Shown: positions 10,792 through 19,678 of the stretch, piece after piece
Layout: the number at the start of each line of letters is the position of its first letter
How positions within the stretch are numbered: the stretch's first letter is position 1
Source of the DNA: a virus
Virus record (IMG/VR): IMGVR_UViG_3300021959_000011
Span: 64,001 to 128,000 of that record
Direction: 5' to 3' (one strand)
Length of the DNA: 64,000 bases
Position numbers and translations under genes: made by a program
Notes under the pieces: model-generated
The model's database searches: none
What the model was told of the DNA's origin: nothing
Seen by the model: only the letters and a program-made list of their open reading frames with translations

Positions 10792-11346
10792 CTACTCCAA
10801 GTCCGTATCCCAATAAACATAATCAATCCAAGTTAGGTGCAGTTTTTGGTATTTTTCCTTACTGATACCTCTCATCAAATGGGTGTTTGATGGCACTACT
10901 GGTTTATTTATAGGATACATTCCAATCTCTTTGGTGAGTCGATTTCCTTTCTTTGTATTGCACCGCCGACATGCAGTTACAATATTATGCCAAGATGTGT
11001 TACCACCACGACTTAATGGTAATACATGATCGAATGTCAAATCTTTTGTTGGAAATTTTGTATTGCAATACTGACATTTAAATCTATCTCTTGCAAAAAC
11101 ATTAAGCCTAGTAAATCTAGGTGTCCTATGAGTTTTTACGTATGATTTAAGTGATATTACTGATGGTACATACATCTTGAAAGACGCACTATGTACAACA
11201 TGTTCATCATATTCGTGTACAACATTAACTCTTTCAAGCAAGGTAGAAGTAACTGCTTCTTGCCATGTGCAAGTAGATAAGGGCATTGTTGCCAGTGGTC
11301 TATAATCCGCATTCAGAACTAAAGTCTGAACATTGTTTGGTATCAT
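10792..11346 (-). CDS. HNH endonuclease
   Basis: LVLNADYRPL, RD.F.CQYC, TFDHVLPLSRGG.T.W.NIVTACRRCN.KKG. Confidence 0.93.
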   Translation of the reverse strand: MIPNNVQTLVLNADYRPLATMPLSTCTWQEAVTSTLLERVNVVHEYDEHVVHSASFKMYVPSVISLKSYVKTHRTPRFTRLNVFARDRFKCQYCNTKFPTKDLTFDHVLPLSRGGNTSWHNIVTACRRCNTKKGNRLTKEIGMYPINKPVVPSNTHLMRGISKEKYQKLHLTWIDYVYWDTDLE

Positions 11347-11726: not shown

Positions 11727-13769
11727 CTATTTTGTTGTTGCTATAAAAACACCATTCCAATCTTCTGGTAAATCCTGAGTTTCCATGTATTCGCACCTTT
11801 CTTTCCACATCCTGTAATAACCTTCCATACGTCCATCAAAATGGTCAACCAAACCTTCACACAAATACCCAGCGCGTACAAATTCCTTATTACGATAGTG
11901 CTTTAACATTTCATCATGTATTCTACCACTAACTCTATAGTGATTTTTAATATTATCTAATGCGGTGTAAATACTTATACCTATAGTCTTTCCTTTGACT
12001 GCAAGATCATCTAACTTCAGATAAAAGAAATCATCTTTTGTTCTATTATAGGTTTCTTCTCCAATTAACAAAACCATACCATATTCTTTACACTTTGATT
12101 CTATTCTCGCAGCAGTTGATACAGAATCCCCCAATACGTCATACGAGTGTCTTGCAGTACTTCCCATTTCACCCAAATAACCAAGACCAGTATTAATACC
12201 AGCCCCCATACCAACTGGAGGCCTACCTTCACTAGTAATTTTTTCATTGAACTTTTCCACAGCATTTAACATATCAAATGCAGTTTGTACTGCAGTCTTG
12301 GCATGGTTTGGATCATCTATAGGGGCATTATGAACATGCATACTTGCATCACCAATATATTTGATAACCATACCTTCACTATCAAGAATTGGTTGTGTGA
12401 TTGCATCCATATAACCATTCATAATCTTAGTCAAACCTTTTACGTCATCACCAAAAGATTCTCCTAATGGTGTGAAACCACGCAAATCGGAAAAACAAAT
12501 ACTAATCTCTTTTTTCATACCATCTTTGATAAGTGAAGGATTTTCTTGTAACATGCGTACAACTGTGGGAGATGCATAACCGGCAAATTGTTTTTTGATT
12601 TCTTGTTTCTCTAAAAATTCACTGATAAACTTTACTGAGTATCTAAAAGTACCTAATAAAAGTAACAAGAATGATATCGTAAGTCCATCAATCAAAAATC
12701 CATATTGATTAAAAATGTATACTGTACTGTACATTATACCCACTAATGTAAACGTAAAGAAACATAATCCAATATAAGTCCAGTTTGATAACACAATTAA
12801 TAACAGTCCAATAACTATCAATGCAGTAATTTCGCCCCAGGCCTTTGCATCTGGGTGTCTTGAAATATTTGAGTCGTTGAATACTGTGCCCAACATGACT
12901 GCCTGCATTTCGTGCGGCCATATACCACCTTTTGCAGTAGAGATAGGTTGTGCAATCCCACCAGCACTAACACCAACAAAAACAACACCACCATTAAAAT
13001 TATCTGGTAAGTTTTCACTACTCACAGAAGTATATCCCTGAGACCAATCAATCCAGATTTCACCAAGGGCGTTTGTCTGAATAGAACCAAATTGTGGAAT
13101 TCTCAGTTTATCTACGCCGAGGGGGGATAGTTTAATTTGAAATGAAGGATCTCCAGCAATAACTCTTAAAGTCTCCATTGTTACATTTGGATATAAAACT
13201 CCACCACTTTCAAACACAAGGGGAGCTCTTCTTGTTACACCATCCAATTCTGGATAAGTGTCAGTTATCCCTGTACCAAGTGCAGTACCTTCAAGTAATT
13301 CAATATTAGTTGTGATGCCAGATATACTTGGAATGAGATGCATATACTGACTATTAATAATTCCAGCGCCAGGGTTATATGGTTCATTTTTGTTCTCCTC
13401 TGTACCTATCATTGTTAAAATGACAGGATACTCATTTAAAATATAAGATAATTCTTCATCTTCTCCAAATCTATCTTTTTCGCTCATAAGTACATTAAAT
13501 ACAACTAGTCCAGCACCTCTATCGTAAATATCTTGGATAATCTCCCCATAAATACTTCGAGGAAATGGCCATTGTCCATATTCATCAATAGTTGTTTCAT
13601 CTATATTGACTGTAAAAATATTATTTTGTTGTATTGGTTGACTTGTAATAAGAGTGTCAAAATATCTTAACCTAACACTCTCAACAAAATTTGGATTGAC
13701 ATGATAGATCCATGTCAGACATGCGAGTAGTAAAATACTCCATACAGGTGAAAGTAAAACTTTTTTCAT
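11727..13769 (-). CDS. CHASE2-domain class III adenylate/guanylate cyclase
   Basis: N-terminal TM; CHASE2 motifs (VNIDETTIDEYGQWPFPRS, DGVTRR, HEMQA); 3 TM; cyclase motifs FSDLRGFT, KYIGDA, GAGINTG, YDVLGDSVSTAARIES, VKGK; C-terminal TPR-like W.GVF..TTK. Confidence 0.95.
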   Translation of the reverse strand: MKKVLLSPVWSILLLACLTWIYHVNPNFVESVRLRYFDTLITSQPIQQNNIFTVNIDETTIDEYGQWPFPRSIYGEIIQDIYDRGAGLVVFNVLMSEKDRFGEDEELSYILNEYPVILTMIGTEENKNEPYNPGAGIINSQYMHLIPSISGITTNIELLEGTALGTGITDTYPELDGVTRRAPLVFESGGVLYPNVTMETLRVIAGDPSFQIKLSPLGVDKLRIPQFGSIQTNALGEIWIDWSQGYTSVSSENLPDNFNGGVVFVGVSAGGIAQPISTAKGGIWPHEMQAVMLGTVFNDSNISRHPDAKAWGEITALIVIGLLLIVLSNWTYIGLCFFTFTLVGIMYSTVYIFNQYGFLIDGLTISFLLLLLGTFRYSVKFISEFLEKQEIKKQFAGYASPTVVRMLQENPSLIKDGMKKEISICFSDLRGFTPLGESFGDDVKGLTKIMNGYMDAITQPILDSEGMVIKYIGDASMHVHNAPIDDPNHAKTAVQTAFDMLNAVEKFNEKITSEGRPPVGMGAGINTGLGYLGEMGSTARHSYDVLGDSVSTAARIESKCKEYGMVLLIGEETYNRTKDDFFYLKLDDLAVKGKTIGISIYTALDNIKNHYRVSGRIHDEMLKHYRNKEFVRAGYLCEGLVDHFDGRMEGYYRMWKERCEYMETQDLPEDWNGVFIATTK

Positions 13770-14041
13770 GACAACTTTTTCTTTATATACAATACTACCG
13801 CATAAACTGTTAAAAGATACACTGTTGCGATACTAACATCTACAATATGTTCTCTCATATTATATATAAATTCTATTCCTGCCTGAACATCTCCCTGACC
13901 ACCTACACCAACATTTTCTGTAATATTGATTGTTTTGCCTTCGAACCCGTCAAAGGCGCCATCCTCAATAATAATTTCACAATCGTCACATTCGCCGTCT
14001 TGCCAAGGTTCTACTGTTTGATTAATTTCAATGTCATTCAT
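13766..14041 (-). CDS. small acidic protein with C-terminal TM helix
   Basis: Acidic N-terminus with CDDC, TM VSIATVYLLTVYAVVLYI; ATGA overlap with the cyclase gene. Confidence 0.65.
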   Translation of the reverse strand: MNDIEINQTVEPWQDGECDDCEIIIEDGAFDGFEGKTINITENVGVGGQGDVQAGIEFIYNMREHIVDVSIATVYLLTVYAVVLYIKKKLS

Positions 14042-14048
14042 TTTTTCC

Positions 14049-14747
14049 TCAATTCTGTGTCACATTTACTGTACACCCAGATGAATTAGTGCAATAATTT
14101 GTAATAGAGATTGATTTTGATGCTGGGTCTTGGTAACTTGATCCAAGTTGTTGTATATTTGCTGTCACGGGCCCGCCAGCATTTGTTACATTGATAGTTG
14201 CTGAGTTATTAAGTGAACGTTGGTAAAGAGTAACATCGTTGTCATCACCTGTCACATAGATACCACCATAGGCTACACCATAACTGTCGCTGTTATGTTT
14301 TACTGTATTACCATCACCAGTTATATAAGTCTCACTTTCTTTGTGTCCACCCCAACTACCACCACTACTATTATTGATTAACCGACTCATTACAGTATTT
14401 TCATCACCTGTTATTTCTACAATAGTTTCTCTGGTGTTGCCATTGTTTTGTCCGGCCGCATGACTAGTTCGAACTATGTTTTCATTTCCAATCATTGTCA
14501 CATCTACAACACTGTTATCACTTTTATAACCTCTACTCCACCCTACTGCATTACCATTTAAGTCAATACAATTACTGTCAGCATTAGGTGTGGCACAATA
14601 ACGAAATTCGTTATCCCGTCCATCTTGAACCACAGTAAGTTCAAGATTGTCGCCAACTTGATTGATATAAATTTCGTTACTATTGGACTTGGATGATATT
14701 AATAGTGTTATTACCAACACCAAGCCGATAGTTATATATTGCTTCAT
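14049..14747 (-). CDS. secreted curlin-like beta-solenoid protein 2 (CsgA/CsgB-like)
   Basis: Signal peptide; NEIYINQVGDNLELTVVQDGRDN and repeated x-I-T-G-D-x-N-x-V units. Confidence 0.75.
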   Translation of the reverse strand: MKQYITIGLVLVITLLISSKSNSNEIYINQVGDNLELTVVQDGRDNEFRYCATPNADSNCIDLNGNAVGWSRGYKSDNSVVDVTMIGNENIVRTSHAAGQNNGNTRETIVEITGDENTVMSRLINNSSGGSWGGHKESETYITGDGNTVKHNSDSYGVAYGGIYVTGDDNDVTLYQRSLNNSATINVTNAGGPVTANIQQLGSSYQDPASKSISITNYCTNSSGCTVNVTQN

Positions 14748-15795
14748 CTTGTTGCTCCACGTTTATCGTATACCCATATTCTTGGTTTAATTCTAAATCA
14801 ATATAATGAGTAATGGATGCATCTTCTCTACTAAACTTCCAATTTGGTTCTTCAACTTCTAATGTTATTCTTGTGGCTGGATCGTATCCAAATACTTTAT
14901 CTGCAAAAAATTCTTCGTTCTGTTTTTGTAACTCATCTTTAAATAATTCCGCCAATGCTAGGTTCATCGTGTCTAACATATCATGCAACAATTCTTGTAA
15001 ATATAAGTCAGTATTATTTAGTTCAGTTACCCAGATGTTTTTGATATCGTCTAAAAGTACATCTTCATCCAACCCATCATATTCTAAAAAGTCAATATCT
15101 AAAAAATCATAAATTTTTCGCGCCTTGCGTACAATTTCTTCTTCCTCTTCTATATATGGAGATTTCTTTCTAAGAATTAAGAGATTTGTAATATCGGATT
15201 CTTCTAAAGGTAATATTAATGGTTTTAACGGTGGGGTCCAAGATTGTTTTACAATAGTTGTTTGATAAGATTGATTCATTATAACAATACCATTATCATT
15301 TTCTACAGTAATTTCACCAGTAACACAATATCCACTTATATCACAACTAGGCAGTAATGTAACCATTGTGCCACCAATTTCATCTACAACCATTACAAAA
15401 TCCGTGCCACGCACATTAATCTTTGCACTAGGAGTTCTTATGTTTACACGCTGTCTACTATTCTTTGCAATTTGACCACTTGCGTATCTAACTGTACCCA
15501 GAGTTGCCCTTAAACCCAATCTACCAGTACGAGTATTTGGATCATAAACAAAATCATCGATCAACAATCTTGCATGTTCTGTAATATCTACTCTAGTTTC
15601 ATCAACAAAATCGATTCTCATTCTACCCTTGGCAGTAACAGCAGTATCCATAGGCATAACACCTACGCCCCTGCCACCATCAATAACTTGATTATCTCTT
15701 TCTAACACTCCACTACCACTAAACTTACCTATTTCACCGGCACTACCAAACGCATAAGTTGGTATCAACAATAATAGACTTATTATCCTAAACAC
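14680..15795 (-). CDS. FecR-domain exported protein
   Basis: Signal peptide; D...T..G...I.F.D.T.V.I.E...L.ID.F.YDP, G.VRY.SG, IRTPSA.I.VRGTDF. Confidence 0.88.
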   Translation of the reverse strand: MFRIISLLLLIPTYAFGSAGEIGKFSGSGVLERDNQVIDGGRGVGVMPMDTAVTAKGRMRIDFVDETRVDITEHARLLIDDFVYDPNTRTGRLGLRATLGTVRYASGQIAKNSRQRVNIRTPSAKINVRGTDFVMVVDEIGGTMVTLLPSCDISGYCVTGEITVENDNGIVIMNQSYQTTIVKQSWTPPLKPLILPLEESDITNLLILRKKSPYIEEEEEIVRKARKIYDFLDIDFLEYDGLDEDVLLDDIKNIWVTELNNTDLYLQELLHDMLDTMNLALAELFKDELQKQNEEFFADKVFGYDPATRITLEVEEPNWKFSREDASITHYIDLELNQEYGYTINVEQQDEAIYNYRLGVGNNTINIIQVQ

Positions 15796-15796
15796 A

Positions 15797-16525
15797 TTAG
15801 TCTCTCTGGATAATATCTACTTCGGCATTATCACCCACAAATGTTGCATCAACTTTTGTATCATAAATTCCACTTTGGTTTATACTAAACCAACCGCCAC
15901 CACCAGTAATACTTAATGTAACACTATGTCCGGCACTATCACCGGCACCAGATTGGTCAATCTTTACATAATTGCCAGGAGCTTCAGTAGCTAATCCAGA
16001 ATGACCGTCAGAAACTGTACCACTTGCAAGTGAATTTTCATTGTTTATTGTCACAGTAATATCTGCGGCCTTACCATCCTGATCAACATCAATGACGTTT
16101 CCATCACCAGTAATGGTAAATACGGCAACTAGGTCTTCCGCATCGCCGGTTTCACCAATTCTGAACAGAAATTTGTTATCATCTCCAGTTGTCGCAATAT
16201 TCAATGTGACATCTTCACAATTTGTACCAGAAGTATCATCACACGTCAGATCCACAGTATTGTCATCACCAGTAAATACCCACGTACCAGTGTAACTATT
16301 ACCTTTTATCAGTGCATCAATTTCATTAAAATTACCTGTTTGAGTAATTGAGAATGTCATATCATCACCATCTAAAAGAACATCTGTTGTAGAGTCACCA
16401 AACTCATTGTCCTGACCATCTTGCGTAATAGCTAAATCTAAATTATCACCAGATTGTGTAATATAGATATCATTAGCAAATACTGGAAACGAAAAGAATA
16501 TCAATGGAATTATATATTTCCACAT
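15797..16525 (-). CDS. secreted curlin-like beta-solenoid protein 1 (CsgA/CsgB-like)
   Basis: Signal peptide; NDIYITQSGDNLDLAITQDGQDN, ITQTGNFN, TGDDN, IDQSG, INQSG repeats. Confidence 0.8.
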   Translation of the reverse strand: MWKYIIPLIFFSFPVFANDIYITQSGDNLDLAITQDGQDNEFGDSTTDVLLDGDDMTFSITQTGNFNEIDALIKGNSYTGTWVFTGDDNTVDLTCDDTSGTNCEDVTLNIATTGDDNKFLFRIGETGDAEDLVAVFTITGDGNVIDVDQDGKAADITVTINNENSLASGTVSDGHSGLATEAPGNYVKIDQSGAGDSAGHSVTLSITGGGGWFSINQSGIYDTKVDATFVGDNAEVDIIQRD

Positions 16526-16546
16526 ATCTTATTTCTCCTTAATAAA

Positions 16547-17347
16547 TTATTTGAATTTCCATAATTTTTTATCAACACCTTCATAAACCAATTCTATAAT
16601 TCCCTGCTCTATCGCAGCTCTTACTGCATAATTTACAGGTTCGTTTACTGAAAAACCAGATTCTGTTTCTACGAGTTTTGTACCTAAATCCAAAAACTTA
16701 AAAACATCTGCGCCGGTTCTATAACTTGCAATAGATTTTTCTGTTGCAATACTCATTAAGACCTTACCAGTGTTAACGCTAACTAATCTCATTACGACAG
16801 TAACTGTATCTATTCTATATTCTGTTTGTGCGCCGATGCCAAGATATCTTCCACCAACACCACCTACAGCCGTATTACTGTCATAACCAACTACACCACC
16901 TTCTAAAATCAAACCCGCAAAAATCATAGGTTTTAATTTTATGGGTCCGTTTGGTAAATCCTTTTCGTATACCTCTCTTGTATTTCTAATAAGTTGTCTT
17001 TCTTTAATAAGGTTGTCCATACCAACTCTTTCAACAACCTCAAACCATTCACCCTGTCCAACATCCTGTAGGGCCTTTATAACCCAAACCTCCGAACCTT
17101 GTGTTACGGCCGAACTTAGATTTGCAATACCATCTGATGGTTTTCTCTGTCCAGTTTTATCCAAAAACTGATAGACTGCAATAGTAATTTTATCACCATC
17201 TATTGGTGGTACTGCTGCCAATCGTTCTTTGATAGGACTCTCCTGTGATACTGGAGAATCGTCCAAACTATTCAGAACATCAAGAGATTGCATTACTGCA
17301 CATCCGCCTAAAAAATTCATAAAAAATATTATAAAAAATATTCTCAT
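16547..17347 (-). CDS. csgG: curli secretion channel lipoprotein CsgG
   Basis: Lipobox LGGC; IAVYQFLDKTGQRKP...SSAVTQG, WFEVVERVG.DNL.KERQLIR, EGGVVGYD.N...GG.GGRYLGIG...YR.D.VTV..RLVSV.TG, NEPV..AVR.AIE. Confidence 0.95.
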   Translation of the reverse strand: MRIFFIIFFMNFLGGCAVMQSLDVLNSLDDSPVSQESPIKERLAAVPPIDGDKITIAVYQFLDKTGQRKPSDGIANLSSAVTQGSEVWVIKALQDVGQGEWFEVVERVGMDNLIKERQLIRNTREVYEKDLPNGPIKLKPMIFAGLILEGGVVGYDSNTAVGGVGGRYLGIGAQTEYRIDTVTVVMRLVSVNTGKVLMSIATEKSIASYRTGADVFKFLDLGTKLVETESGFSVNEPVNYAVRAAIEQGIIELVYEGVDKKLWKFK

Positions 17348-17809
17348 TTAAAATCCAAATTCTCCACTGCCTGGCACAGTAATTTCTGTAACAGTACCAT
17401 CATCACCAACAATAGTTAGTGTGATTTCACCAGTAGTTTCATCTCTAATCCAACTAATAGTTGAACCTTCAATCGATGCTGTACCTGTATTTGAACAAGT
17501 ATCAGTACAATCTGCAAACATCGAATCTACCATCTGTTTAGAAAGTTGTGCGTAAATTCTAGATTCAATGTTACGAATAAATTTATTTAGAGTTGTATTA
17601 TTCAATTCTCTTTCTATTCGTGCGGCCTCAGATTCTGCATCTTTTCGAAGTTCTTCTTTTCTATTATGTTGCAACTGTTCAACACTCAGTACATGAGTAG
17701 AATATCCATTACCATAATGAAATGCAGGGTTCTTAAATCCCCATGTCATTTCAGAACCATATACTGGAAATGTTAATAATAATATCACTAATATAAAAAA
17801 GATTTTCAT
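17348..17809 (-). CDS. csgF: curli assembly protein CsgF
   Basis: Signal peptide; SEMTWGFKNPAF..GNG (CsgF N-terminus), F..N.ESRIYAQLS, G..TEITVP; directly upstream of csgG. Confidence 0.88.
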   Translation of the reverse strand: MKIFFILVILLLTFPVYGSEMTWGFKNPAFHYGNGYSTHVLSVEQLQHNRKEELRKDAESEAARIERELNNTTLNKFIRNIESRIYAQLSKQMVDSMFADCTDTCSNTGTASIEGSTISWIRDETTGEITLTIVGDDGTVTEITVPGSGEFGF

Positions 17810-17817
17810 AATTATTC

Positions 17818-18108
17818 CTACTTATCTTTATTCTTTAAAAACTCATCTATTTCTTCTTCAGTTGGTATTTTTTGTTCTTTAGATTGTAAAATCATATTTA
17901 ATTTTGTATTTAGTCTAATTAAATCATTATCCATCATTCTTATGCGATCAATTAATGCAATCAAAGTCATATGAGATTCTTCGATTACAGGGTCGACTTC
18001 CTTAGTAACCCAATTCCAAATATAAAATATGAAATATCCTAGTCCTACCGCAGCGATTATTGGAAATCCATACTGCGATACTAAATCACCTAAATTTTGA
18101 TCTGGCAT
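17818..18108 (-). CDS. small single-TM coiled-coil protein (paralogue of 18480..18767)
   Basis: LVSQYGFPIIAAVGLGYFIF...DRIRMMDNDLIRL. Confidence 0.75.
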   Translation of the reverse strand: MPDQNLGDLVSQYGFPIIAAVGLGYFIFYIWNWVTKEVDPVIEESHMTLIALIDRIRMMDNDLIRLNTKLNMILQSKEQKIPTEEEIDEFLKNKDK

Positions 18109-18311
18109 TATTCTGACTCAGACAAATCTTCTGGATTACATCTCATCAACCAACCATGTTCATTTACAACAAACTTATCGCCGGGCTTATAAAGGTGATA
18201 CTCCTTTACAGAATTTCCATCCTTATCCATTCCCATCACTTCGCCTGGCCAATCACCTTTGACTGTAAAATTATTGCCGGCCTGCTCAATACTATATTCA
18301 ACCCATAACAT
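18108..18311 (-). CDS. small hypothetical protein (start reassigned to MLWVEY)
   Basis: Overlaps the upstream small ORF; C-terminal PGDKFVVNEHGWL. Confidence 0.6.
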   Translation of the reverse strand: MLWVEYSIEQAGNNFTVKGDWPGEVMGMDKDGNSVKEYHLYKPGDKFVVNEHGWLMRCNPEDLSESE

Positions 18312-18477
18312 TTTCAGCACCAATTTTTTCAAAGTACCCATTTGGGCCAACTCTATAAACATCACCGATTTGTAATTCAACATCATCAATGATAAAAAAT
18401 TTATCATCTGGATTTTTATTTGTCAAAATGCGAAAACCATTTTGAAATTTCATTAGTAGTAAATCTTTCCACAACAT
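18298..18477 (-). CDS. small hypothetical protein, 59 aa (not in ORF track)
   Basis: MLWKDLLLMKFQNGFRILTNKNPDDKFFIIDDVELQIGDVYRVGPNGYFEKIGAENVMG; starts 2 nt after the upstream stop. Confidence 0.6.
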   Translation of the reverse strand: MLWKDLLLMKFQNGFRILTNKNPDDKFFIIDDVELQIGDVYRVGPNGYFEKIGAENVMG

Positions 18478-18479
18478 AT

Positions 18480-18767
18480 TTAGTCCTTTCTAGCATCTTT
18501 TTGTCCATCTGCCCTTGCAATTCTATTTAAATCTGCAGGGAGCATTGGAATATTAAATGAACGGCACATTAATATATCTATTCTCAAAAGTTCATTATTC
18601 ATCGTTTTCACTCTATTATCAAGAGACTTTACGAATCCTCTTTGGGTACGGATATCATCTAAGACTCCGGCCAATATGAATTTCAATGTTAGGAACACAA
18701 AAAATCCACCCGCCAAAGCGGATGCAATTGGAAACCCCACATCACTGACCAAATCTAAAATATCCAT
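18480..18767 (-). CDS. small single-TM coiled-coil protein (paralogue of 17818..18108)
   Basis: LVSDVGFPIASALAGGFFVF...DNRVKTMNNELLRI; SD GAGGA. Confidence 0.75.
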   Translation of the reverse strand: MDILDLVSDVGFPIASALAGGFFVFLTLKFILAGVLDDIRTQRGFVKSLDNRVKTMNNELLRIDILMCRSFNIPMLPADLNRIARADGQKDARKD

Positions 18768-18786
18768 AATAGTTTATCCTCAAAAC

Positions 18787-18794
18787 TATTTATA
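18787..18794 (-). promoter_or_regulatory. T4-type late promoter heading the curli/FecR/cyclase operon
   Basis: Exact TATAAATA about 20 nt upstream of the 18767 ATG. Confidence 0.8.
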
Positions 18795-18815: not shown

Positions 18816-19292
18816 TTATCCTTGGGCCGACATGATAAGAAACACAATTAATGCCAATATTCCTGATAGACAAAGTATTAAAAATATAATTAATAGAAAT
18901 TCAAAAAACTTTTTACGTCTTTCCATTTGTTTATAAATGGTTTCTTCTCTTTCTTTTCGAATATTTCTACGCAACTCTACCATTTCTTTCCACGTACCAT
19001 AACCAAAACGGTTATTCAGTAGTGCCTGTAGGTCTGCCTCTTGTTCTGCGAGTTTCTTTTTATGAATAATTATCTGGAGGGCCTCTTCTTCGACAGAACC
19101 AGAAGAAAAAAGTTTAGTAAATAGTGGGGGATTTTTTCTTTGACTCTCTGCTCGAGTCAAATCTGCTGCAGCACCATACCAACGACCAAGATGACCGGCG
19201 ACTTCTTCCAAGTCTCTTCCGGCCGATACTAATTTACGTATACCATTGTATGCTGTAGTTGCAGCAGTTATTGCTGTTATGGGGTCAATCAT
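18816..19292 (-). CDS. hypothetical protein with C-terminal TM anchor
   Basis: MIDPITAI..., coiled coil, hydrophobic C-terminus; late promoter TATAAATA at 19381-19388. Confidence 0.75.
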   Translation of the reverse strand: MIDPITAITAATTAYNGIRKLVSAGRDLEEVAGHLGRWYGAAADLTRAESQRKNPPLFTKLFSSGSVEEEALQIIIHKKKLAEQEADLQALLNNRFGYGTWKEMVELRRNIRKEREETIYKQMERRKKFFEFLLIIFLILCLSGILALIVFLIMSAQG

Positions 19293-19393: not shown

Positions 19394-19678
19394 TTAAAAA
19401 ACTCTACCACTTTCAGTCTCATTAATTAATCTACTCCATATCTTTAATTTGTTTCGTTTATGTTCTTCACGAATTTCCACTTCGTTCCAACTAAACATAT
19501 CCCATTCGTGGGCAAGATTAATCATCGTCATAACATCTCCAAGTTCATCTTGGAATTTTTTTCTGTCGTATTCACCTTTACGAATACATTTGGAACATTC
19601 TTGAATTAATTCGGCACATTCTTCCATAAGAATTACCAAAAGTTCATCTCTAGGGTCTTTGAACTGTTTAATACTCAT
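19394..19678 (-). CDS. MazG-like nucleotide pyrophosphohydrolase
   Basis: LMEECAELIQ..SK...DELGDV (EExxE...ExxD). Confidence 0.8.
   Translation of the reverse strand: MSIKQFKDPRDELLVILMEECAELIQECSKCIRKGEYDRKKFQDELGDVMTMINLAHEWDMFSWNEVEIREEHKRNKLKIWSRLINETESGRVF

Follow-up and report, generated by a model that had tools for sequence, protein, structure and literature searches.

The closest described counterparts of the locus analysed here are the curli gene regions of marine phages. The csgGF genes were first noted in Pelagibacter phage HTVC008M, a curli cluster was reported in pelagimyophages (Zaragoza-Solas et al. 2020, PMC7029224), and the full region, histidine kinase ('HK')–CsgF–CsgG–CsgA/B–FecR–CsgA/B–adenylate cyclase (AC), was described in podo- and myo-pelagiphages by Wittmers et al. 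(2022, PMC9599517), according to whom bacterial curli operons lack FecR, HK and AC. Viral curli genes were found at all 65 GOV2.0 stations and in metatranscriptomes, and the proteins made up ~0.1% of assembled viral proteins (PMC9599517); Buchholz et al. (2022, PMC9004378) modelled the CsgG/F pore and proposed for it a role in lysis timing. We have analysed a locus of this kind in a stretch of 64,000 nucleotides (the window), which comprises positions 64,001 to 128,000 of the virus record IMGVR_UViG_3300021959_000011 of IMG/VR, itself 140.9 kb long with an estimated completeness of 70%. The locus is a run of genes at 11727-18794 of the window, all on the minus strand and either 0-21 nt apart or overlapping, that encodes CsgF, CsgG, two curlin-like proteins, a FecR-domain protein, an adenylate cyclase with a CHASE2 domain and several small proteins (Table 1).

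It is essentially certain that this run represents the viral type VIII secretion (curli) region already described from pelagiphages. As in the region of Wittmers et al., csgF and csgG are adjacent and are followed by a curlin gene, the FecR gene, a second curlin gene and the adenylate cyclase gene in a T4-like marine myophage. Methylophilales phage Melnitz (gp99-104) and HTVC008M, the nearest deposited relatives, are annotated with this gene order too, and Melnitz has ~70% nucleotide identity across the module region. These nearest records and the T4-type tail, baseplate and ribonucleotide reductase (RNR) genes among the window proteins identify the carrier as a pelagiphage-type marine phage genome. 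There is no essential difference from the published region. Upstream, where the papers place a 'histidine kinase', the two proteins found here, p95 and p96, belong to phrog_18771 and have no kinase domain; the missing kinase may be a difference of annotation rather than of gene. An earlier note, made from the sequence alone, had given the gene order and the tight minus-strand packing, with which the open reading frame (ORF) coordinates, the spacing and the Pfam matches agree, and had mentioned that csg-like genes occur in some marine myophages, as is indeed published for HTVC008M, the pelagimyophages and Melnitz. Its suggestion that the unit as a whole might be new does not hold, as the gene set, FecR and cyclase included, has been known since 2022 (PMC9599517). 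What the present analysis adds is the CHASE2 topology of the cyclase, a conserved late-promoter motif, a derived Asp544/Ser551 site, the C-terminal domain of FecR and a bacterial context of type I secretion system (T1SS) adhesins; the CHASE2 domain, membrane topology, late promoter and bacterial T1SS context are not mentioned in the published module papers (PMC9599517, PMC7029224, PMC9004378).

We tentatively propose that the run forms one late-expressed unit spanning the envelope, in which curlins would be exported through CsgG/F, FecR would be the partner of the CHASE2 domain and be tied to secreted material, and cAMP would be the output; we consider this a real possibility, a little short of probable. 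The block would be transcribed late from a T4-type promoter, the lipoprotein CsgG would form an outer-membrane channel together with CsgF, and the two acidic curlin-like proteins would cross the inner membrane by the Sec pathway and leave through that channel. In the periplasm the FecR-domain protein would partner the cyclase CHASE2 domain, much as FecR and CHASE2 proteins pair in bacteria, a conserved beta domain at its C-terminus would tie it to the secreted curlins or to the pore, and the state of the surface structure would set the synthesis of cAMP in the cytoplasm. The earlier note had likewise read the unit as a surface-to-cytoplasm relay, and such a reading is supported because the linkage of the genes is conserved, FecR and CHASE2 proteins are paired in bacteria, T1SS-adhesin loci provide a comparable context and there is a precedent in S. 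meliloti NsrA, while the physical coupling that a relay implies stays conjectural. The fold of the N-terminal half of FecR and the curlin-like motif at its C-terminus, both described below, also count in favour of the relay.

Conservation of the linkage is clear. A scan of IMG/VR with the FecR protein gave 159 relatives, from which 80 viral loci were kept (FecR identity 83% to 35%), and the order csgF-csgG-curlin-FecR is invariant in all of them, in general followed by (curlin)-cyclase. A cyclase ORF is present in 65 of the 80, a further locus (L045) adds a tblastn match, and every viral locus that has no cyclase ends within ~4 kb of FecR. The slot between FecR and the cyclase always opens with the secreted curlin-2 and often holds extra small genes, including relatives of p158. 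The link of cyclase and FecR genes to csgFG, the loss of which in related genomes the earlier note had taken as evidence against a relay, is kept in every locus that extends far enough, so that this check did not refute the relay. A homologue search with the cyclase brought up only near-identical viral or metagenomic relatives (8000 candidates scored, 7999 of them at E <= 1e-10). Some loci have an ORF of ~595-667 aa together with small genes between curlin-2 and the cyclase (L010:10375-12369, L019:8786-10762, L028:2033-4036 and L037:10287-12074).

A late-promoter motif, TATAAATA, stands 20 nt upstream of the ATG of p95; the earlier note had already placed such a promoter ahead of the run, and there is no second copy within it. 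In the whole window we counted 17 copies, where 8.4 are expected, and each points the same way as the genes around it. Among 66 distinct related viral loci, 37 have an exact copy no more than 80 nt ahead of the first gene of the module.

The enzyme at the end of the run has the layout of a CHASE2-three-transmembrane-class III cyclase, a prediction of the earlier note on which Pfam matches and hydropathy agree: a transmembrane (TM) segment at residues 3-24 leads into the periplasmic CHASE2 domain, and three further TM segments (~308-376) separate this from the catalytic domain, which matches bacterial adenylate cyclase structures at 1e-21 to 1e-16. In a non-redundant set of 48 phage sequences compared with 80 bacterial relatives, the metal-binding Asp428 and Asp474 as well as Lys470 and Arg555 are invariant; CyaB (3r5g) was also aligned. 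The Lys and Asp residues are the classical ATP-selecting pair of class III cyclases, and with Lys470 and Asp544 forming this pair, we expect cAMP to be the product. Ser551 replaces the transition-state Asn in this enzyme and in 37 of the 48 phage cyclases, always together with Asp544 (window 12090-12510, residues 428-555); in the remaining 11 phage enzymes and in 80/80 bacterial relatives residue 551 is Asn and residue 544 is Ser or Thr. Asp544/Ser551 is a derived, coupled active-site change of the phage cyclase clade. The enzyme is like the CyaD1/CyaK-type CHASE2 cyclases in its TM-CHASE2-three TM-cyclase order, its pair of metal-binding Asp residues, its adenine-specifying Lys and its transition-state Arg, but differs from them in having Ser551 for the transition-state Asn. 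Membership of the Pycsar (PycC) family was considered and rejected: the model matches (1e-15) are no better than a generic cyclase match, Lys470/Asp544 select ATP and there is no adjacent effector, so that the PycC matches reflect shared fold only.

The export half of the module resembles canonical curli (E. coli csgBAC/csgDEFG) in its CsgG lipoprotein channel, its CsgF and its secreted curlin-repeat proteins; it differs in having neither CsgE nor a CsgD-type regulator, in altered constriction residues, and in the insertion of FecR and the cyclase. CsgG matches E. coli CsgG structures at E = 6e-49. The constriction of E. coli CsgG, which we take to be Tyr51, Asn55 and Phe56, aligns with Ser, Asn and Leu in the phage protein, which suggests a less bulky channel constriction. 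The mature N-terminus of CsgF retains F-x-N-P-x-F...G-N-G, and a phmmer comparison of CsgF with PDB sequences gave only a spurious match, to a designed protein. Curlin-like 1 is strongly acidic (net charge -34), and its nearest Atlas clusters are viral curlin-repeat proteins. Curlin-like 2 fell just short of the cut-off for Curlin_rpt in one Pfam scan (7.4e-4) and scored 20.8 bits against a cut-off of 20.7 bits in another. The two curlin-like proteins have nearly identical mature N-termini, and the length of curlin-like 2 among relatives runs from 113 to 844 aa. By their repeats, curlin-like 1 would qualify as a secreted curlin subunit and curlin-like 2 as a borderline one. As the earlier note had observed of the window, a csgE gene is lacking, with no PF10627 match in the 140.9-kb record (estimated 70% complete).

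The FecR-domain protein consists of a signal peptide (1-18), a FecR fold at ~20-195, an acidic linker at ~196-300 and a C-terminal beta domain at 301-371. Its AlphaFold model has a mean pLDDT of 74.9, with a confident first beta domain (20-182), a helical, low-confidence linker (~206-300) and a seven-stranded C-terminal domain, and the modelled FecR fold superimposes on the cell-surface signalling domain of PupR (6ovk) with Z 15.0 and rmsd 2.8 over 137 residues. It has no hydrophobic segment past the signal peptide. Because the signal peptide directly precedes the FecR domain, and both a cytoplasmic domain and a membrane anchor are absent, the protein is not a FecR-type anti-sigma factor; no extracytoplasmic function (ECF) sigma factor or TonB-dependent transducer is apparent among the module genes in a Pfam scan, which was not a search aimed at them. 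It is like the FecA-FecR-FecI and PupB-PupR systems in its periplasmic FecR fold, which in those systems binds the signalling domain of the outer-membrane transducer, but it is without their N-terminal anti-sigma domain and anchor, and the output is a cyclase instead of an ECF sigma factor. A prediction from alignments of a complex between the periplasmic CHASE2 domain (25-310) and the FecR domain (19-215) gave a score of 0.05 and a mark of 0.32, which is no evidence either way. The last 45 residues of FecR, a conserved C-terminal motif in which Gln348 and Gln369 are invariant, align end to end with the last rung of curlin-like 1 (hhalign E 0.0034, probability 9.6%). The FecR and curlin-2 genes overlap by 68 nt (14680-14747), such that the last 22 FecR codons, with the conserved C-terminal motif, lie over the signal-peptide codons of curlin-2 in another frame; in Melnitz and HTVC008M this overlap is 29 nt.

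We compared the 80 closest bacterial relatives of the cyclase (27-31% full-length identity, mostly from Alphaproteobacteria), and in none of them does csgG, csgF, a curlin gene, p95 or p96 lie within 10 kb. A phage-derived profile detected a FecR-domain ORF within the same distance in 29 of the 80. FecR genes number 1-9 per genome, and the cyclase neighbour is the only copy in two of the five genomes checked. These neighbours are of two kinds, one small (275-480 aa) and, as in the phage, provided with a signal peptide, and the other, about half of them, of ~900-2947 aa with no signal peptide and with a FecR domain near the N-terminus followed by repeats. Domains found in FecR neighbours are Big_9 (9 of 28), Cadherin_4 (8), RTX (5) and FG-GAP (3), and the large proteins are adhesin-like substrates of type I secretion. 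T1SS ABC transporter and HlyD-type membrane fusion protein (MFP) genes are present in 28 of the 80 bacterial loci, in many cases immediately before the cyclase gene and in its orientation, and in 12 there is a TolC-like gene too. In four loci, operons of a TolC-like outer-membrane efflux protein (OEP), T1SS ABC, HlyD MFP and CHASE2 cyclase adjoin a giant FecR-headed adhesin (L126:5089-15459, L155:3353-14085, L130:6254-17147 and L119:5290-22131). As FecR-headed adhesins and T1SS genes come together at cyclase loci, a design of outer-membrane pore, FecR-bearing surface protein and CHASE2 cyclase recurs in bacteria, and the phage has this design with CsgG/F as the pore. The bacterial T1SS-adhesin/CHASE2 loci share with the phage module an outer-membrane pore, a FecR-bearing surface protein and a TM-CHASE2-3TM cyclase of the same family; they differ in having a TolC-like pore with ABC and MFP components, a giant cadherin/Big/FG-GAP/RTX adhesin without a Sec signal, and Asn551. 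In a literature search no description of a T1SS-adhesin/CHASE2 cyclase pairing was found among the 12 top matches.

Conversely, seven csgF-csgG-curlin loci from 401 sampled genomes of the same class, Alphaproteobacteria, have neither FecR nor a cyclase within 9 kb. As the bacterial CHASE2 cyclases are without csg genes and the bacterial csg loci without FecR or cyclase, the phage module is a chimera, in which a curli secretion set of alphaproteobacterial type has been combined with a second bacterial unit, a FecR/CHASE2-cyclase pair whose bacterial counterparts serve type I-secreted adhesins; this is in accord with what was published (PMC9599517). Cases of the pairing are on record: in Burkholderia and Pseudomonas a CHASE2 kinase has a LysM-FecR protein as its neighbour (PMC5192318), and in S. 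meliloti the FecR-domain gene smc02177 adjoins cyaD1 (PMC5498481). The CHASE2 cyclases of S. meliloti need the outer-membrane protein NsrA for activation (PMC7529298, PMC13001267), and CyaD1 is constitutive once CHASE2 is deleted (PMC5498481). The NsrA-CyaD1/CyaD2/CyaK-Clr pathway is thus like our proposal in that CHASE2 cyclases are switched on from outside via an outer-membrane protein, with a FecR gene adjoining cyaD1; it differs in that NsrA is a beta-barrel receptor and not a secretion pore, in that a Crp-type reader, Clr, operates there, and in that smc02177 was dispensable for signal perception in that study (PMC5498481).

Several observations weigh against the proposed relay. Contact of FecR with CHASE2, with the curlins or with the pore is conjectural, and export of the curlins, the direction of signalling and a reader of cAMP are likewise elements that we infer. 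The phage FecR, with its Sec signal peptide, resembles the small periplasmic class of bacterial neighbours as much as the adhesin class, and it may never leave the periplasm. The hhalign probability of the match between the FecR C-terminus and a curlin rung is just 9.6%, and Pfam Curlin_rpt gives no match there. Searched alone, the C-terminal domain (pLDDT 87.8) gave a best Foldseek E of 0.41 and a best VIA-align Z of 4.1, to a CBM56 beta sandwich, with no match to CsgA; the idea of a curlin rung in FecR therefore rests on a sequence motif, and its link to the curlins should be regarded as no more than a lead. No cNMP (cyclic nucleotide monophosphate)-binding protein or domain was found in the phage record, estimated at 70% complete, in line with the earlier note, which had seen no such effector in the window. 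Asn-to-Ser changes lower kcat in mammalian cyclases, and Ser551 may lower activity here, or the coupled change may compensate. The cyclase is inverted upstream in two loci (L041 and L042), up to 5 kb can be inserted between curlin-2 and the cyclase, where the small genes also differ between phages, and in a few related loci a second TATAAATA just before the cyclase gives it a motif of its own. The cyclase is, moreover, often missing from podovirus versions (PMC9599517).

The published explanation is that the module makes curli-like fibres on the surface of the infected cell, for aggregation ('sibling capture') or for phage exclusion, while FecR and the cyclase are uncoupled regulators of host physiology, acting for instance on iron or cAMP regulons (PMC9599517, PMC7029224). 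CsgG, CsgF and signal-peptide-bearing curlin-repeat proteins are all the parts needed for secretion, and the cyclase would seem separable, being dispensable in some podovirus versions and parted from curlin-2 by insertions in some myophages. No clumping was seen in Melnitz infections, however (Buchholz et al., PMC9004378), and FecR always lies between the two curlin genes in related loci. FecR is also without the anti-sigma and membrane parts required for iron-type signalling, its bacterial relatives are adhesin N-termini or CHASE2 partners and not iron regulators, and no transcription factor such as CsgD or Crp was found encoded. We regard this explanation as somewhat unlikely.

Another possibility, which we hold to be unlikely, is that FecR is a tether lodged in the pore, with its C-terminal domain outside on the curlin fibre, its acidic 100-residue linker running through CsgG/F and a disulfide-bonded plug in the periplasm against CHASE2. 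Residues 16-110 of the FecR model superimpose on the cell surface anchoring domain of MpIBP (5ix9) with Z 7.2 and rmsd 2.1 over 73 residues at 23% identity, a suggestive match that bears on the relay as well, although the value lies within the range attained by common beta arrangements, and Foldseek gives a match of the N-terminal half to 5ix9 with TM 0.74 and E 7.5e-3. The anchoring domain of MpIBP is a periplasmic plug too large for passage through TolC (PMC5550230), and in the model the N-terminal half of FecR resembles this plug, by which a T1SS adhesin is retained. Across the family Cys151 and Cys157 do not vary, the linker has a charge of -18 here and a family mean of -13.6, and the CsgG/F lumen is predicted to be positively charged (Buchholz et al. 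2022, PMC9004378). If the tether were real, the unit would be an outside-in sensor through which contact, fibre load or a superinfecting virion is signalled as cAMP, and a type VIII secretion system (T8SS) version of an undescribed bacterial T1SS-adhesin design.

A role for CsgG/F in lysis timing, as a gated secretin- or pinholin-like channel into which the cyclase and the small membrane proteins feed, was proposed for Melnitz (PMC9004378) on the grounds of structural modelling and synteny. A late function would be in keeping with the late-promoter motif, p95 and p96 (~95 aa with one TM segment) have the size and shape of a holin and antiholin, and there is a very weak PHROG holin match (E 0.0077). 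That match spans only 19 residues, though, CsgG as an outer-membrane lipoprotein cannot depolarise the inner membrane, no linked lysis gene is apparent, and the two secreted curlins and FecR are left unexplained, so that we think this role improbable. Equally improbable is a stand-alone cyclase that serves host takeover or counter-defence by producing (or depleting) a nucleotide signal and stands beside envelope genes for historical reasons only, since its class III fold with weak PycC matches, and an Asp544/Ser551 pair absent from all 80 bacterial relatives that could mean altered chemistry, are set against an ATP-specifying Lys470/Asp544, PycC matches no better than the generic Pfam one, no adjacent effector gene, and a CHASE2 extracytoplasmic sensor with conserved FecR linkage that favours envelope-controlled activity.

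Table 1. Features of the curli-FecR-cyclase run and its upstream flank, in window coordinates.
Feature	Coordinates	Strand	Matches and properties
p158	18816-19292	-	phrog_32327; C-terminal TM segment
TATAAATA, T4-type late-promoter motif	18787-18794	-	20 nt 5' of p95 ATG
p95	18480-18767	-	phrog_18771, 8.9e-24; N-terminal TM segment and helical tail
p59	18298-18477	-	small protein, no family match
p99	18108-18407	-	no family match in Pfam or PHROG
p96	17818-18108	-	p95 paralogue; phrog_18771, 6e-31
csgF	17348-17809	-	PF10614, 1.1e-12; signal peptide
csgG	16547-17347	-	PF03783, 2.4e-47; lipoprotein, lipobox LGGC
curlin-like 1	15797-16525	-	Curlin_rpt (PF07012), 6.2e-10; signal peptide
FecR-domain protein	14680-15795	-	GTG start; PF04773, 6e-8; phrog_37870, 4e-99
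curlin-like 2	14049-14747	-	Curlin_rpt, 7.4e-4, borderline; signal peptide
tm91	13766-14041	-	small protein, C-terminal TM 65-87
CHASE2 cyclase, 680 aa	11727-13769	-	CHASE2, 1.2e-29; Guanylate_cyc, 3.4e-17

The small genes of the run are more varied than the earlier note's description of them as transmembrane proteins would have it: by hydropathy, a hydrophobic segment is present in p95 (at ~10-37), in p96 (borderline) and in tm91, while p59 and p99 have none. The paralogues p95 and p96 (17818-18767), each a TM segment with a helical tail, flank the two smaller ORFs p59 and p99, and neither a holin nor a kinase family is supported for the pair. Where a related locus extends over their position they are nearly always present, in most cases upstream, although in some the pair lies downstream of the cyclase in inverted orientation; p59 has relatives in part of the related viral loci. 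From its first ATG p99 overlaps p59 by 110 nt; its true start is probably the internal ATG near 18308, which gives ~66 aa. A Pfam scan of the four small upstream ORFs found no family and no HisKA or HATPase domain, and a histidine kinase assignment of p95 and p96 was rejected, as Pfam and PHROG searches gave no supporting domain. No similarity to tm91 was found in any of the 80 related viral loci, and it is an orphan in a variable slot, not a conserved part of the module. We also considered whether tm91 is the split-off C-terminus of a longer curlin-2, which in Melnitz has 338 aa, and rejected this, as the closest relatives pass from a 226-aa curlin-2 straight to the cyclase and tm91 has no relatives. 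The p158 gene, just upstream of the promoter motif here, lies between curlin-2 and the cyclase elsewhere (e.g. L025, L027, L029, L032, L038 and L046) and is a mobile accessory of the module. Further upstream, 19394-19678 encodes a small protein with a MazG-like nucleotide pyrophosphohydrolase domain (PF03819, 5.3e-5), and two genes downstream of the cyclase there is an HNH endonuclease at 10792-11346 (PF14279, 7.6e-20), probably a homing endonuclease.

The hosts of these phages, SAR11 and OM43, are among the most abundant marine bacteria, and to our knowledge neither has curli genes. The idea of a coupled module is testable in two cultured phage-host pairs. If it is true that the cyclase reads the surface structure via FecR, the module would be a sensory pathway across the whole cell envelope that is installed by a virus, and it would suggest a function for the unexplained CHASE2 domain and for the FecR-headed adhesins of bacteria.

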